A stretch of DNA of 52,840 bases from a virus. Under the pieces are notes generated by a model, which made no database searches, was not told the origin of the DNA, and saw only the letters and a program-made list of their open reading frames with translations. Below are positions 32,559 to 37,766 of the stretch, piece after piece. Both the position numbers and the translations under genes were made by a program. The number at the start of each line of letters is the position of its first letter. The first letter of the stretch is position 1. The DNA lies in the IMG/VR virus record IMGVR_UViG_3300000291_000011; one strand, 5' to 3'.

Positions 32559-32798
32559 ACCCCCGTTTTGACTACTTTGCACGACGGAAAGAGGGTCAAA
32601 ATTGCGAATCTGGGGATTGCAAAAACCATGTGCGATAACAGCAGATTGAGCAATTACAAGGCATACGCAAGCGCAGAGTAGCGAAGAGAAAACCGCTTTC
32701 GCTTTCTTCCATGGAAAGCAAACAAAATCCGTAAAACTGTTGGATTCTCTATGGTTCTCAGACCATTGCAACGCTGCTGACTACCATTTTGACTACTT
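32559..32798. other. Candidate attP region
   Basis: Non-coding stretch immediately downstream of int; exact 12-bp direct repeat TTTTGACTACTT at 32566-32577 and 32787-32798, extra TGACTAC at 32778; palindrome TTCCATGGAA at 32707-32716. Confidence 0.35.
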
Positions 32799-33842
32799 GG
32801 ACGTAGAAGTCAACATACTTTCGACCCTTCGGATGGCGTTTTCTTCCTTTTTTTTCGTGAGATGTGCATATATCCGCATTATCATCGTCTCATCCTCATG
32901 CCCCATCCAGCGCGCGGCAGTTTTAATGTCAACATCCGCATCATAGAGCATCGTCGCAAAAGTATGTCTGCAATCGTGCTGCCTGATTGCCACAGTTCTC
33001 CCCGCAATTTTTGTTAGATGATTTTGGTAACGCTTCCACGCATCGGTCACAGCGCTGAAAGAAATAATTTTGTTATCTTTCGATATTATCACGCTTCCGT
33101 GTCGCCCTCGCAAGACACCCCGTAACGGCGGAAACAGCGGCACGTCACGAATACCAGCTTTGGTCTTTGGTGCAGTGACAATATAGTCGGAACGTTCGCG
33201 TCGAATCGCCTTTCGGACGTGAATCACACCTTTTTCAAAATCAACGTCATCATCAATATCGAGCGCAAGCGCTTCTCCACGCCTAAGCCCTGCATACACC
33301 ATCACCATCGCGTAAATTCCCATCCTTTCGCTGTCACAAGTATCTCTGATTAGTTTTATTTCCCAATCATCAAGATTACGGTGCGTCCCTACTGCCCCTT
33401 TCTTCCGCCTAACGTTCTCGCAGGGAGAAATTGCAACTATTCCATCATTTTTTGCAGCGCGAAAAACCGCTCTTGTTGATTCGGCTATCTTCCTTAGCGT
33501 CCCTTCTCCGCGGTCGGAAAAAGCGTTATAAAGTCGCTGTATATCCGACGGCGTAATTAGCCTCATCTCCGTCTTTGGCAGGATTGAGGCTATCTGGTTA
33601 AGGCGTGAGACATATGCATCATATACATTTATGGTCACCTCGCTCTTGTACGTCGGCAGCCACTCCGCCGCGTACTCCGCGAACGTATACTTTTCCCGTG
33701 GTTTCCTGCCGTATTTTTCCTGCTTTTTGTACTCTTCACGGGCTGCAAGGGCTTCTGACTGCGTTCGCCCGTAGAACGAGAATCCCTTATATTTACAAAC
33801 ATAACGCCCGTCGGGGCGCTTTTTTAGTGTCTGGCGTGGCAA
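32793..33842 (-). CDS. int: Tyrosine recombinase / phage integrase
   Basis: TTG 33842 eight nt after AAGGAG; ..GLRRGEALAL.. (Arg), HDCRHTFAT (HxxR), RIYAHL (Tyr). Confidence 0.9.
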   Translation of the reverse strand: MPRQTLKKRPDGRYVCKYKGFSFYGRTQSEALAAREEYKKQEKYGRKPREKYTFAEYAAEWLPTYKSEVTINVYDAYVSRLNQIASILPKTEMRLITPSDIQRLYNAFSDRGEGTLRKIAESTRAVFRAAKNDGIVAISPCENVRRKKGAVGTHRNLDDWEIKLIRDTCDSERMGIYAMVMVYAGLRRGEALALDIDDDVDFEKGVIHVRKAIRRERSDYIVTAPKTKAGIRDVPLFPPLRGVLRGRHGSVIISKDNKIISFSAVTDAWKRYQNHLTKIAGRTVAIRQHDCRHTFATMLYDADVDIKTAARWMGHEDETMIMRIYAHLTKKKEENAIRRVESMLTSTSK

Positions 33843-34017
33843 GTGTATCACTCCTTTTCTCTTATTGTGCCGCAAAACGCAGCAAAGTGCCATCGTAAAA
33901 TGTGAACAAATTGAAAACATTTTGCAAATGCACGGAAAATTTTTTATCATATTTCGCTGTGCGTCAGCATATGGTATTGCGGTGGACGGTAAAAAATACG
34001 CGACTGGAGAGGAAAAT

Positions 34018-34146: not shown

Positions 34147-34185
34147 ATACATAAACAATATGAACTGCGGAGAGCATCGAATCCG

Positions 34186-34258
34186 AAAGCAAACGGAAGC
34201 AAAGCAAAAGCAAAAGAGAGCAAACAAAAGCAAAAGAAAGCAAAGCTAAGCAAAGAAA
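34186..34258. repeat. Purine-strand microsatellite (GCAAA/GCAAAA/GCAAAG)n
   Basis: About 13 consecutive GCAAA-type units. Confidence 0.85.
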
Positions 34259-34435
34259 AGCTATGCTATCATTTGCTATTCTATTTTTCCGGATGCGAAA
34301 GTCAGGAAAGGTAAAACCACGCCCATGAAGGTCAGGGAAAGTCAGAAAATGATGCACTTCATAATTTGCAAAAGCGCCTGAAATACAGTGATTGCAAGGC
34401 TTTGCGCCACGCTGACGCAAAAATCCGCAAAATGC

Positions 34436-34570
34436 GATAGCTATGCTAAAAATAAAATAGCTTAGCTATTAAAAAAATAGCTGAATTATTTTTGCTATTA
34501 AAAAAAATAGCACAGCTAAAAAATAAATAGCAGAATTATTTTTGCTATGCACATTTTTTGTGCTATTTGG
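34436..34570. repeat. A-tract plus ATAGC/GCTAT iteron-like repeat zone
   Basis: A6-8 tracts each followed by TAGC; repeated units such as AAAAAAATAGCTGAATTATTTTTGCTATT and AAAAAATAAATAGCAGAATTATTTTTGCTATG. Confidence 0.8.
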
Positions 34571-34610
34571 CGCTAATAATCTCCGCGTTTTACAAGTGGC
34601 GTTTGTTGTC

Positions 34611-34654
34611 TCGCGCGCGCGACATAGTTATATTATAATACACACTTGTGTGTA
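34611..34654. repeat. Two perfect palindromes: TCGCGCGCGCGA and TACACAC-TT-GTGTGTA
   Basis: 12-bp alternating CG palindrome at 34611-34622; 16-bp inverted repeat at 34639-34654, at the boundary of the AT-rich block. Confidence 0.85.
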
Positions 34655-34770
34655 ATAATAATATATATATCATACAGTATAATATAAGTTGCTATATAGT
34701 ACAAGTATGGATATATAATAATATAAGCAGCTATATAACACAAGTATGTATATATAAATAATATATAATA
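34651..34770. repeat. 39-bp AT-rich tandem repeat, about 2.5-3 copies
   Basis: GCTATATAGTACAAGTATGGATATATAATAATATAAGCA (34691-34729) versus GCTATATAACACAAGTATGTATATATAAATAATATATAA (34730-34768), plus a degenerate copy upstream. Confidence 0.75.
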
Positions 34771-34945
34771 AAAGACCACTACTACCACCACAAGAACACA
34801 TACTCGACAGAGTGGGGTAGGGGGATAATAGGGGGTATAGAGTAATAGGGGGTATGGGGGGAAGAGAGAAAAGGGGGGAAGAAGCGGGAGGGGAGAGGGA
34901 CGGGCGGTGGTTTTGTGGTGGTGGCAGCGGCGGTGGTCTTTTTTT
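34770..34945 (+). other. G-tract block enclosed by a long-range interrupted stem and followed by T7 (candidate structured RNA or terminator-like element)
   Basis: 34774-34793 (GACCACTACTACCACCACAA) pairs with 34913-34938 (TTGTGGTGG..GGTGGTC). The enclosed about 119 nt carry ten or more G3-6 runs and no C from 34811 to 34884. A4 precedes and T7 follows. Confidence 0.4.
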
Positions 34946-34958
34946 ATCCAGCACCTTT

Positions 34959-35080
34959 CTGCGGGCATCCGCAGCATGGTCATCTTCGCGGCTTTGCGAA
35001 ATTGATAGCCGCGGGGCAGACCATTTTCGCGGCATCACGCAAATGGTTCTCGCTGCCCGTTTTGTTGGGGTCAACAAAAC
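34959..35080. other. Four stem-loops, three directly abutting
   Basis: H1 34959-34974 (CTGCGG/CCGCAG); H2 34987-35013 (CGCGGCT/AGCCGCG); H3 35014-35058 (GGGCAG+ACCATTT / AAATGGT+CTGCCC); H4 35059-35080 (GTTTTGTTG/CAACAAAAC). Confidence 0.6.
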
Positions 35081-35121
35081 GTCTTGCCATTTTTGCCCAA
35101 CAAAAAAATCAGCAGGGGGAC

Positions 35122-35150
35122 TTGACAAGCGGGGCAATCTGGCATATAAT
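35122..35150 (+). promoter_or_regulatory. Consensus sigma-70/A promoter pointing into the 3' end of the repressor gene (antisense)
   Basis: TTGACA 35122-35127, 17-nt spacer, TATAAT 35145-35150; bracketed by the 9-bp inverted repeat AATCAGCAG (35107) / CTGCTGATT (35181). No credible ORF downstream. Confidence 0.6.
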
Positions 35151-35285
35151 CATGGCATCTTGCTTCTCCGCTCTGCTCCTCTGCTGATTCTCCTGATTGT
35201 CCTCACGCGCTTGCCGCTCTCAGGCGTTCGGGGACGCGCGGTTCTTCTTGCTGGTTTCATGTTCCCGACATTCGCGCCGTGGGCA

Positions 35286-35699
35286 TCACGGTTCTCCCTT
35301 TTCAGCATCCCCCTTGTCCGCCATGCGCTTTAAGCTATCACGTTCCTTGCGCTCCTGCCGCATCCGACGTTCCGCCCTCGCGGTGAGGTACTCAACGTAG
35401 TCCATCGCCTCGCGCACAACGTCATCCGGCGCACCCATCAGCTTGGCGATAATCGCCTCGCAGGTTGCGTCGAGGATAGGGCGGTCAGACGTTCCATGCG
35501 GGTTGTCGGACAGTCCGCAAAGGTAGTCGGTGGTCACGCCGAGCGCTTCGGCGAACTTCACGACGCTGGTAATCTCCGGCGTGATGGTTCCACGCTCATA
35601 GCAAGAATACGTCGCTTGCGACACTCCAACGATGCTTGCCATTTCGGCTTGCGTCTTTTTTTTTGCCTTTCTCGCTTCCTTGAGCCTATCTCCAAGCAT
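35286..35699 (-). CDS. CI-like repressor (XRE-family HTH, no S24 peptidase domain)
   Basis: 137 aa; LKEARKAKKKTQAEMASIVGVSQATYSCYERG; divergent from a cro-like gene. Confidence 0.75.
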   Translation of the reverse strand: MLGDRLKEARKAKKKTQAEMASIVGVSQATYSCYERGTITPEITSVVKFAEALGVTTDYLCGLSDNPHGTSDRPILDATCEAIIAKLMGAPDDVVREAMDYVEYLTARAERRMRQERKERDSLKRMADKGDAEKGEP

Positions 35700-35731: not shown

Positions 35732-35760
35732 TTGACATATATAATCGAGTGTGCTATTAT
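35732..35760 (+). promoter_or_regulatory. Promoter for the cro-like gene (switch 1)
   Basis: TTGACA 35732-35737, 17 nt, TATTAT 35755-35760. Confidence 0.6.
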
Positions 35761-35796
35761 TAGCATTGATAATAAGCACTGATTGGAGGGATGCGG

Positions 35797-35997
35797 ATGC
35801 AGAACCGCGTGCGTGAGTTCCGCGCAAAGAAGGGCTTTACGCAGATGCAGCTTGCGTGCGAAATCGGATGTGAGCAGGGGCTTGTGTCTCTGTATGAGAG
35901 GGGTGTAAATACCCCGTCACTGCATAACGCTCTTCGCCTTGCCCGTGCGCTTGGCACGACGGTCGAAGCCCTTTTCGGGGGTGAGGTCGATGGCTGA
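35797..35997 (+). CDS. Cro-like XRE-family HTH protein
   Basis: 66 aa; REFRAKKGFTQMQLACEIGCEQGLVSLYERG. Confidence 0.75.
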   Translation: MQNRVREFRAKKGFTQMQLACEIGCEQGLVSLYERGVNTPSLHNALRLARALGTTVEALFGGEVDG

Positions 35998-36992: not shown

Positions 36993-37766
36993 TCACAAAG
37001 GCATTCCAACTGGCTTCTTGCCCTTCTCGCAGACGATGCAATACACAAAATTGCCATCTGCGTCCGTGAAGTATAGCGAAACCTCATTCGGCGCAATATC
37101 GGCAATCGTCTGCAAGACAGAGGCGTATTTATCGCGGATTTTGGTAAAGTCTGACGATGTTCCTTCCTGCTTCGCCTTGATAAAGCTGGTCGAGAATGCG
37201 CCACCGACACGGATTCCGTAATCTCCATCGGCGTAGATTACCGACTGCAAAAAATCCGACTGACCGTACACCTCGTTGATTTTCTCAAAAATCGCCGGGT
37301 CTGCACCTTCTTTAACAAAGCTGTTTGTATCGGCATTGATTGGCAACTTCGTCTCCTTGATGGTATAGACTGCGCCTTCGGAGGACATAATCAGGAAGGG
37401 TTCGCCAGAAAAGTCCCTCGAGAAAAAGAAATCAATCTCGACGCAGTACGAATCATTGCAGAACTCCCAAGTCATCTCCGTAATCTGAACCAGCAACTCG
37501 GCATACGAATCCTTGATTTCCTTGTAATTTTTAGGGTCGCATGTTGCGAATGTTGCAGTGTTTTGAGACGACACCTTGATGATATAACAATGCCGTTCGG
37601 GGTCTAAGGAAACATTGTAGTACAATCCGATTGATTTGTCATCTTTGCAATATGCTTGCAAAACCCCCAAGAGGTAGTCTTCCAACGCGGCTTTTTCCGC
37701 CAGCGCGGGGACACAGGAAGCCATCAGGCAGCAGAGAACCAGCAGGACGGAAACAAACTTCTTCAT
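36993..37766 (-). CDS. Secreted protein or lipoprotein
   Basis: Signal peptide MKKFVSVLLVLCCLMASCVPALA with a possible lipobox (LMAS-C); 257 aa, no family recognised. Confidence 0.7.
   Translation of the reverse strand: MKKFVSVLLVLCCLMASCVPALAEKAALEDYLLGVLQAYCKDDKSIGLYYNVSLDPERHCYIIKVSSQNTATFATCDPKNYKEIKDSYAELLVQITEMTWEFCNDSYCVEIDFFFSRDFSGEPFLIMSSEGAVYTIKETKLPINADTNSFVKEGADPAIFEKINEVYGQSDFLQSVIYADGDYGIRVGGAFSTSFIKAKQEGTSSDFTKIRDKYASVLQTIADIAPNEVSLYFTDADGNFVYCIVCEKGKKPVGMPL

Follow-up and report, generated by a model that had tools for sequence, protein, structure and literature searches.

What does a temperate phage keep between its integrase gene and its repressor gene when the spacer holds a block of G tracts almost devoid of cytosine? 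The question is raised by IMG/VR virus record IMGVR_UViG_3300000291_000011, a temperate-phage genome of about 53 kb whose 52,840 analyzed nucleotides (nt) are referred to here as the window, and specifically by a cassette of about 350 bases (approximately 34598–34946) that lies in the spacer separating the integrase gene (int) from the repressor gene (cI). An original prediction, made from the letters of the sequence, had proposed that AT-rich repeats lead here into a G-rich block that is closed by a long-range stem and transcribed from the plus strand. We examined the cassette in the window and in approximately 46 related phage contigs that were collected via their integrase and repressor proteins. 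We hypothesize that it is an optional, moron-like noncoding transcription unit, possibly a small-RNA gene, that a family of temperate phages from the human gut carries in its lysogeny region; a moron is an independent accessory transcription unit (PMC3594210). We assign this interpretation a probability of roughly 40%.

Anatomy, folding, and noncoding status of the cassette

Read along the plus strand, the cassette, of which each genome holds one copy, comprises the following parts.

34598–34624, plus strand: junction motif J (CGTTTGTTGTCTCGCGCGCGCGACATAG; also given as CGTTGTTTCCTCGCGCGCGCGACATAG), whose core is (CG)5; on the left, the sequence common to all copies starts here
34625–34773, plus strand: AT-rich promoter-like segment, 82% A+T, with a 39-bp repeat and four plus-strand TATAAT hexamers
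34764–34769, plus strand: the only TATAAT kept in all relatives bar the deletion variant L055 (invariant columns of alignment A1)
34770–34773, plus strand: run of four A preceding the stem
34774–34793, plus strand: left arm of the stem, GACCACTACTACCACCACAA, unchanged among relatives except for a 3-nt ACT indel in seven to eight of them
34794–34912, plus strand: 119-nt loop, with a small hairpin at 34799–34813 and then the G block
34913–34938, plus strand: right arm of the stem, TTGTGGTGGTGGCAGCGGCGGTGGTC, of (GGY)n type, the 3' part of which is GCGGYGGYGGTC
34939–34945, plus strand: run of seven T (T7–T9 in relatives), a U-tract for a plus-strand terminator and an A-tract on the minus strand

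The segment upstream of the stem had been described as almost pure A/T, which slightly overstates a genuine bias, as 26 of the 148 bases from 34625 to 34772 are G or C. The palindrome TACACAC-TT-GTGTGTA reported there is present at 34639–34654 and is perfect only in the window, most relatives reading TACATAC at its start, such that it is not conserved. The 39-bp tandem repeat is also real and spans 34679–34765, where Tandem Repeats Finder (TRF) counts 2.2 copies (87% matching, score 132) rather than the 2.5–3 copies first estimated; some relatives are exactly one 39-nt unit shorter. TATAAT hexamers start at 34634, 34678, 34714, and 34764 on the plus strand and occur once on the minus strand. 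Motifs of the ACAAGTATG type are found three times, at 34641–34649 (inverted, with one mismatch), 34701–34709, and 34740–34748.

The run without cytosine extends from 34809 to 34884 (76 nt); about 3e-5 such runs would be expected by chance, and the second longest of the window measures 34 nt. Ten G tracts of three to six residues (G3–G6) lie between 34814 and 34904, including G3-A-G4-AGA-G3-AC-G3 with short loops. The loop further contains a 17-nt tandem duplication (34826–34859) and six GGA motifs, and the unit TAATAGGGGGTAT is present twice in the block as compared to 0.02 expected occurrences. The scarcity of cytosine, the number of G tracts, and the duplicated unit had all been noted at the outset and are borne out by these counts, as are the runs of A and T on either side of the stem. 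The G4Hunter score, which describes the potential for G-quadruplex (G4) formation, reaches 1.81 over 100 nt, as compared to a window mean of 0.11 (standard deviation 0.19), and its 25-nt value of 2.28 is the maximum of the window.

Folding likewise confirmed the long-range stem, in which the left arm pairs with 34913–34938 as two helices with GACCAC/GUGGUC closing. The minimum free energy (MFE) of the plus strand is −41.7 kcal/mol (z −3.4 versus shuffles) and that of the minus strand, which ends in the tail UUUUAUUAU, is −35.5 kcal/mol (z −4.9 versus shuffles). A G4-aware fold places two quadruplexes inside the clamp formed by the stem (−93.7 kcal/mol versus −38.5 kcal/mol without them), and the predicted centroid fold leaves the loop unpaired with its G tracts exposed. 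With at least four G tracts of three or more, short spacers, and a high G4Hunter score, the block has the features of a G4-forming sequence, and G4 formation is predicted, in agreement with the potential originally ascribed to it. No independent G-rich, C-free blocks were identified at the other fetched loci, and a search of the literature on G4 in phage lysogeny regions returned nothing relevant.

Is the cassette real, and is it noncoding? It is carried by 22 IMG/VR contigs and by independent human-gut assemblies in ENA, JGI, and Logan (dozens in all), and a spacer from a clustered regularly interspaced short palindromic repeats (CRISPR) array in contig L072 matches 34838–34866, inside the G block. 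An assembly artefact, which had been named as a possible refutation, is therefore excluded, because many independent data sets carry the element and a CRISPR spacer matches it. The array in L072 (ENA ORCP01003961, 400–7100) is type I-C-like with the repeat GTCGCCCCTCGCGGAGGGGCGTGAATTGAAAT, and about 40 of its spacers match the phage and are spread along the whole window, which indicates heavy targeting and provides a link to a host.

Near-identical relatives differ in the block by indels of 1 nt (in G-run lengths), 7 nt, and 17 nt, and in having T7 or T8. Since these indels break the reading frame, the element is noncoding and the open reading frame (ORF) of 159 amino acids that gene callers place at 34854–35333 (plus strand), in which the T7/T8 variation also falls, is spurious. 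The three ORFs that span the element have no Pfam match. A small hydrophobic peptide or type I toxin on the minus strand, considered for the class-B relatives, was rejected as well, as its A7–A9 run shifts the frame between close relatives. A comparison to known RNA families, suggested along with the original prediction, returned no match: Rfam 15 covariance models (including RsaOG, CsrB/Rsm, ToxI, and 6S) gave 0 hits at gathering scores across the whole window, and at E-values up to 10 only chance-level, sub-threshold hits were found in 34250–35350, the cassette included. ARAGORN identified no transfer RNA or transfer-messenger RNA in the window, and a remnant of either was dropped as an explanation. 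A type III antitoxin-like array (ToxI/CptI) was considered for the 39-nt repeats and rejected based on the number of copies (1.2–2.2), the lack of a toxin gene, and the lack of an Rfam match.

An optional module among phage relatives

The element was identified in 22 contigs, comprising 17 complete copies and five contigs that break inside it, and was absent from 21 others. Every copy with flanks sits at one locus. Among the contigs without the element, L002/L092, L090, and L027/L110 have right flanks that are at least 91% identical to that of the window and thus represent natural empty sites. Homology among the element-bearing relatives begins at J despite three different left flanks. Such presence and absence at the same position among close relatives (22 versus 21) is what is described for morons, which are likewise optional inserts between conserved phage genes that are variably present in close relatives.

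Relatives that lack the element hold a different module, denoted m4, at the same position.

Module m4 (relatives): A-rich homopurine tract; small hairpin in which CGCTGACGCG pairs with GCGGTGGCG; GCGGYGGYGGTC followed by T7–9

The GCGGYGGYGGTC-T7–9 end of m4 is the same motif as the 3' part of the right arm and the T-run of the element. The closing stem, which had been regarded as a special feature, is therefore real but not peculiar to the G block in its right half, as the right arm and T-run are kept in nearly all relatives, even those without the block. By a strict pattern, the (GGY)n-GGTC-T7–9 motif was found at 36 of 46 loci, the remainder being mostly truncated or variant spellings, and all relatives that cover the site have m4, the element, or both. 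In 10 of the 17 complete copies m4 lies directly left of the element, so that a direct repeat of about 20 nt flanks the cassette, which then measures about 390 nt, whereas m4 is missing from the other seven, including the window, in which the motif is present only as part of the element. The direct repeat, considered as a possible target duplication, is the resident terminator motif itself. In some relatives (L093/L095) J is doubled around a 40-nt hairpin module, and in L004/L122 it is the joint of a deletion.

Judged from these alignments, the int–cI spacer is pieced together from small noncoding modules that are shuffled via short repeats, and the element is one optional module of this mosaic rather than an element without relatives. 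It is limited to a single group of closely related phages and is dispensable. A pattern search for the G block in reference bacterial genomes gave no match, and a search of such genomes with the integrase recovered only a 20%-identical relative. Two odd metagenome matches (L075 and L076) were rejected as further loci, as their matches of 27–31 nt are compatible with chance. A transposon, miniature inverted-repeat transposable element, or other mobile element was rejected because all flanked copies are at one locus; in addition, there are no terminal inverted repeats and only one copy per genome.

Transcription signals and competing explanations

The crux is which strand of the cassette is transcribed, a question that is not settled in silico. 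In favor of the plus strand, the retained TATAAT at 34764–34769 sits 5 nt before the stem. The start site would accordingly be expected near 34775, in the first bases of the left arm, and the predicted 5' end would therefore pair with the 3' end. A ACAAGTATG motif is at the −35 position and recurs upstream, which suits an activator-dependent promoter. At the other end, a G+C-rich hairpin (GACCAC/GUGGUC) is directly followed by U7 (U7–U9 in relatives), as in intrinsic terminators. The layout of AT-rich segment, RNA body, and hairpin with T7–8 is thus self-contained, and the cassette brings its own terminator (stem and T7–8), which in 10 of 17 copies duplicates the resident motif to its left. 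In those same copies the cassette directly follows the resident terminator module; a second plus-strand terminator right after m4 is sensible only if a new plus-strand transcript begins between the two. Morons are similarly built from a promoter-like region, a short noncoding body, and a terminator, and similarly stand right after a resident terminator.

We propose that RNA polymerase would initiate near 34775 from this TATAAT and, since there is no −35 box, would probably need an activator, for which the ACAAGTATG motif at the −35 position is the candidate site. Transcription of the plus strand would then stop at T7–8 after the long-range stem, and the product would be an RNA of about 170 nt with its ends clamped by a two-part helix of 19–26 bp. 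The ten G tracts of the 119-nt loop would be displayed single-stranded or as two G-quadruplexes, because a loop almost without cytosine cannot bury them in G–C pairs. This RNA may act in trans as a decoy, either by soaking up C/U-rich RNAs or by binding a protein that recognizes G-rich or GGA-containing RNA. The data establish the parts of the cassette, its polymorphism, its noncoding nature, and its folding potential; promoter use, the start site and RNA ends, termination, and above all the target and the benefit are what we infer in this model. A narrower version, in which the phage carries a ‘G-tract sponge’ (an exchangeable-cargo gene for a small RNA of about 170 nt that titrates C-rich host RNAs or a G-rich-RNA-binding protein in the lysogen), is rather unlikely; a sponge with such a clamped, C-free loop would be a design not described so far.

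Several observations weigh against a transcription unit of this kind. A promoter scan of the AT-rich segment found at best 9 of 12 matches and no −35 box, whereas other promoters of the phage match the full consensus, and a TATAAT within sequence of 82% A+T is weak evidence for a promoter. In L055, a deletion variant, the G block is still present but the −10 box and the left arm are gone. The 119-nt loop is far longer than the approximately 3–10 nt of intrinsic terminators, which would make the hairpin an atypical one, and a terminator scan that allowed loops of 3–8 nt did not call the element. Compensatory changes are absent from all 36 predicted pairs of the stem, one of which varies between G–C and G–U, and the changes to the right arm and terminal helix in L058, L067, and L069 are uncompensated, as is the 3-nt ACT indel of the left arm. 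Diversity in the G block (mean pi 0.05–0.10) is no lower than that of flanking noncoding DNA, and degenerate tandem repeats, obtainable by slippage alone, make up the block. Finally, no partner RNA was found: the one candidate examined, a C/U-rich RNA predicted to be encoded nearby, is not special as a partner of the G block (−78 kcal/mol versus a window background of −54 ± 15 kcal/mol, z −1.65). The plus-strand RNA of the original prediction consequently stands in part: the retained TATAAT, the stem with T7–8, the noncoding body, the predicted G4 structures, and the optional nature of the cassette agree with it, and the missing −35 box, the lack of compensatory change, and L055 do not. The options first offered beside it, a bidirectional terminator and a DNA-level G4 or cruciform signal, keep some probability and are taken up below.

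The leading alternative concerns the transcription units on either side, which are defined by the following features.

32793–33842, minus strand: tyrosine integrase gene (Pfam Phage_integrase, 1.1e-21); the start chosen by gene callers gives 349 amino acids
34018–34146, plus strand: conserved ORF of 42 amino acids (MPVFDKKFVVKMLVEKVKELPDDLQAEFFSWLEKKISAKKTL), divergent from int, with a GGAGAGG ribosome site (Shine-Dalgarno)
35107–35189, minus strand: candidate cI terminator between cI and the element, an inverted repeat (35107–35118 / 35178–35189) with a 59-nt loop, followed by U7
35122–35150, plus strand: perfect TTGACA-17-TATAAT promoter, from the promoter scan
35286–35699, minus strand: cI-like helix-turn-helix (HTH) repressor gene (Pfam HTH_3, 6.7e-15; PHROG transcriptional regulator or repressor)
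35791–35997, plus strand: cro-like gene

The 42-amino-acid ORF is the sole credible gene of the int–cI spacer (about 1.4 kb) and is a putative source of rightward transcription entering it. The ORF has no match in Pfam, PHROG, or NCBIfam, and no terminator was found directly after it; a promoter-like TTGCAA-17-TATCAT for the ORF is located at 33922–33950. On the opposite side of the element, the arms of the inverted repeat at 35107–35189 covary between alleles (TCAGCAGGGGG/CCTCTGCTGA, ACAGGGA/TCCCTGT, GCAGGGG/CCCCTGC), and this repeat with its U7 likely terminates the repressor gene. With a 59-nt loop in the putative cI terminator, the 119-nt-loop hairpin of the element becomes more credible as a terminator.

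The cassette could therefore be viewed as an extra bidirectional terminator or insulator between the rightward unit of the 42-amino-acid ORF and the leftward repressor unit, without an RNA of its own. On the minus strand, its loop would provide more than 100 nt of C-rich sequence without G that approaches an ideal Rho utilization (rut) site, the AT-rich segment would serve as the release zone, and transcription escaping the cI terminator would be blocked from the iteron-like repeats to the left and from int. The near-universal T-run motif, found with or without the G block, is consistent with this, as are the presence of m4 or the element in every relative that covers the site, the replacement of m4 by the element in the seven window-type phages, the significant minus-strand fold, and the occurrence in the same phage of a covarying long-loop hairpin with U7. 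Like intrinsic bidirectional terminators, the element has a G+C-rich helix, U7–8 on one strand and UUUUAUUAU on the other, an A-tract upstream, and a position between convergent units, and its 3' arm and T-run are common to the ordinary-looking terminator of relatives. In contrast to the 3–10 nt loops of intrinsic terminators, however, its loop is 119 nt, its helix is interrupted, and its repeats are trinucleotide-like.

The composition of the minus strand is also rut-like. The excess of C over G peaks at 56% in 78 nt, higher than anywhere else in the window. The bubble area amounts to 5478 %.bp, and ten (YC)N9–13 dimers form a chain in a tract that is G-free over 76 nt, hence unstructured, and untranslated. 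Rut sites, such as that of lambda tR1, are described by a C>G bubble of at least 78 nt that is YC-rich, unstructured, and untranslated (PMC6144790); the minus-strand tract of the element goes far beyond this length and leads into a U/A-rich zone. In Escherichia coli, Rho caused termination on every tested template whose C>G bubble exceeded 78 bp (PMC6144790). The rut-like tract of the element differs in being enclosed in a hairpin and in lying behind an intrinsic terminator. Moreover, an additional terminator would be redundant with the adjacent m4 in 10 of 17 copies and always with the upstream cI terminator, half of the relatives manage without it, and simple termination would call for neither the 119-nt homopurine loop nor the 150 nt of AT-rich repeats. 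The element should receive little leftward transcription, because the promoter scan found no minus-strand promoter to its right and the cI terminator intervenes. Taken together, a terminator without its own transcript is an alternative that we consider somewhat unlikely.

The cassette may, alternatively, have no selected function and represent G-rich and AT-rich repeats that expanded in the manner of a minisatellite, along with an inverted copy of the terminator arm; it would have arisen once, beside a conserved terminator, and since been carried or lost by recombination. It consists of degenerate tandem units (17 nt x2, GGGGGGAAGA-type, and 39 nt x2.2) that are freely gained and lost, and its limited spread, its absence from half of the relatives, and the lack of both covariation and a conservation excess over the flanks all agree with neutrality. 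The divergence of the alignment is low (mean column identity of 95%), and the inner helix is retained by RNAalifold for each of the 21 distinct sequences; purifying selection is not demonstrated, because the relatives are too close and the G block is no more conserved than its flanks. On the other hand, the cassette is retained in 22 contigs across integrase lineages that are 58–75% identical and across two repressor alleles that are about 72% identical, which argues against pure drift. The strand asymmetry over 76 nt is perfect and is preserved by the observed substitutions, which at about six variable sites of the G block are purine-to-purine except for one G>T, such that the loop stays C-free. 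Complementarity of 19–26 bp across 119 nt is also improbable by drift, given the z-scores of both strands. Based on these considerations, the absence of any selected function appears unlikely.

Finally, the cassette might act as DNA, with a non-B-DNA cluster ((CG)5, palindromes, A-tracts, a G4- and triplex-prone homopurine tract, and a long inverted repeat) serving as a recombination joint, a protein platform, a polymerase block or, if transcribed rightward, an R-loop-stabilizing G-rich non-template strand. The modular spacer, the variants of which are explained by recombination at J, at a J-like site near 35230, and at the 20-nt terminator repeat, is in keeping with this, as are the 25-nt G4Hunter maximum, the G-run lengths and repeat copy numbers that vary among relatives (slippage), and the ATAGC-N3-GCTAT iterons that adjoin the cassette on the left. 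At least nine independent assemblies start or stop inside 34807–34880 (L043, L030, L036, L059, L060, L061, L063/L071, L081, and L082), which suggests poor coverage or graph tangles at G-rich repeats, or within-sample heterogeneity; the breaks also speak for a DNA-level element, but are perhaps purely technical. Such a role is quite unlikely, given that no binding protein or motif in common with the cI/cro operator region was found (a shared operator was rejected for this reason), that the G tracts lack helical periodicity, that int separates the cassette from the attachment site, and that phage origins are usually in the replication module.

A phage attachment site (attP) or integrase arm region was rejected since many contigs end 100–130 nt past the 3' end of int, on the opposite side of that gene. 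Contigs L079 and L080 switch to non-phage genes beyond this end. Both encode an ORF of 397 amino acids past int (L079 9312–10505 and L080 7315–8508; Logan) that has no family match and takes the place of phage lysis genes, and this region probably marks the junction of an integrated prophage with its host.

Known systems, the wider spacer, and implications

Prophage small RNAs at moron sites can antagonize host small RNAs, as exemplified by the anti-small-RNAs AgvB and AsxR of enterohaemorrhagic E. coli prophages (PMC4104026; PMC3594210). AgvB and AsxR are encoded downstream of PR', whereas the element is located between int and cI, and they are Hfq-binding RNAs of 51–60 nt, whereas the body of the element is predicted, homopurine, and about 170 nt; there is no sequence similarity between them. 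RosA of Bacillus subtilis and RsaI/RsaOG of Staphylococcus aureus, like the predicted RNA of the element, are stand-alone RNAs of about 150–230 nt with exposed G-rich regions, and the G-rich regions of RosA and RsaI bind C-rich regions of RoxS, FsrA, and RsaG/D/E (bioRxiv 10.1101/814905, 10.1101/278127). RNAs of this type have two or three G-rich regions, whereas the element has ten G tracts in one C-free loop and is phage-borne, and the two are not homologous (no Rfam hit).

Examples of a G-quadruplex or G-rich R-loop are ColE1 RNA II and the mitochondrial conserved sequence block II (CSB II). Both resemble the element in that an AT-rich promoter-like region precedes G tracts on one strand; the element differs in being far from replication genes and in that its G4 is predicted. 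Collectively, we group the element with noncoding accessory units or terminator modules; its body is unusual and statistically extreme, and it was previously unannotated.

The remainder of the spacer, which is purine-rich on the plus strand throughout, is also rich in repeats. Just 3' of the 42-amino-acid ORF, an (AAAGC)n-type tandem repeat (34183–34261) includes a 64-nt T-free run, and in some relatives (e.g., L022 3560–3720) this repeat faces an inverted (GCTTT)n to form a palindrome of about 150 nt. Closer to the cassette, iteron-like palindromes at 34437–34570 comprise three copies of ATAGC-N3-GCTAT and two of ATAGC-N12-GCTAT, with A-tracts between them, a spacing of about 20 bp, and a 50-bp unit that is repeated twice. 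These look like candidate sites for a dimeric DNA-binding protein, and relatives bear alternative versions of the region, such as AAATAGCTGAGCT in two to four copies.

To the right of the cassette, 34976–35050 contains a pair of palindromic units in tandem (CATCTTCGCGGCTTTGCGAAATTG and CATTTTCGCGGCATCACGCAAATG, about 41 bp apart) and 35058–35081 a perfect 10-bp hairpin, all of them upstream of the promoter at 35122–35150. They are candidate operator sites, and the palindromes across 34976–35081 are about 71% identical in relatives without the G block. The promoter at 35122–35150, which has a counterpart in a second consensus promoter of the phage (TTGACA-17-TATTAT at 35732–35760), sits in the 59-nt loop of the putative cI terminator hairpin. 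It would drive the C/U-rich RNA referred to above, of about 145 nt, which would end at a terminator-like hairpin at 35276–35292 and would be fully antisense to the 3' untranslated region and last codons of cI. Both allele classes retain this promoter, and the sequence of the transcript differs between them.

Outside of the spacer, a predicted lipoprotein of 257 amino acids (36993–37766, minus strand) with the signal peptide MKKFVSVLLVLCCLMASC is encoded among five small HTH genes of the early region; it is likely a protein-coding moron and possibly has a role in superinfection exclusion. The host of the phage is probably a Firmicute, because the promoters are of sigma-A consensus, the ribosome sites are of the GGAGG type, and the terminase is 49% identical to that of Enterococcus phages. 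Comparisons to cultured phages revealed no similarity at the DNA level and proteins that are merely 40–49% identical or thereabouts.

Whichever explanation applies, the description of the spacer as a mosaic is useful to annotators, since gene callers set a spurious ORF of 159 amino acids here, and G-rich repeats of this type break assemblies. If the cassette is a terminator, then this phage family uses long-loop hairpins and may rely on intrinsic and Rho-type signals together to keep the repressor unit insulated from int. If the plus-strand RNA exists, then it would be the first noncoding moron described from uncultured temperate phages of the human gut. It would also be an unusually pure example of an RNA that exposes G tracts, with 76 nt free of cytosine between clamped ends. 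Such an RNA would extend the idea of RosA- and RsaI-like sponges to phage cargo and would allow RNA G-quadruplexes in bacteria to be tested on a natural example.

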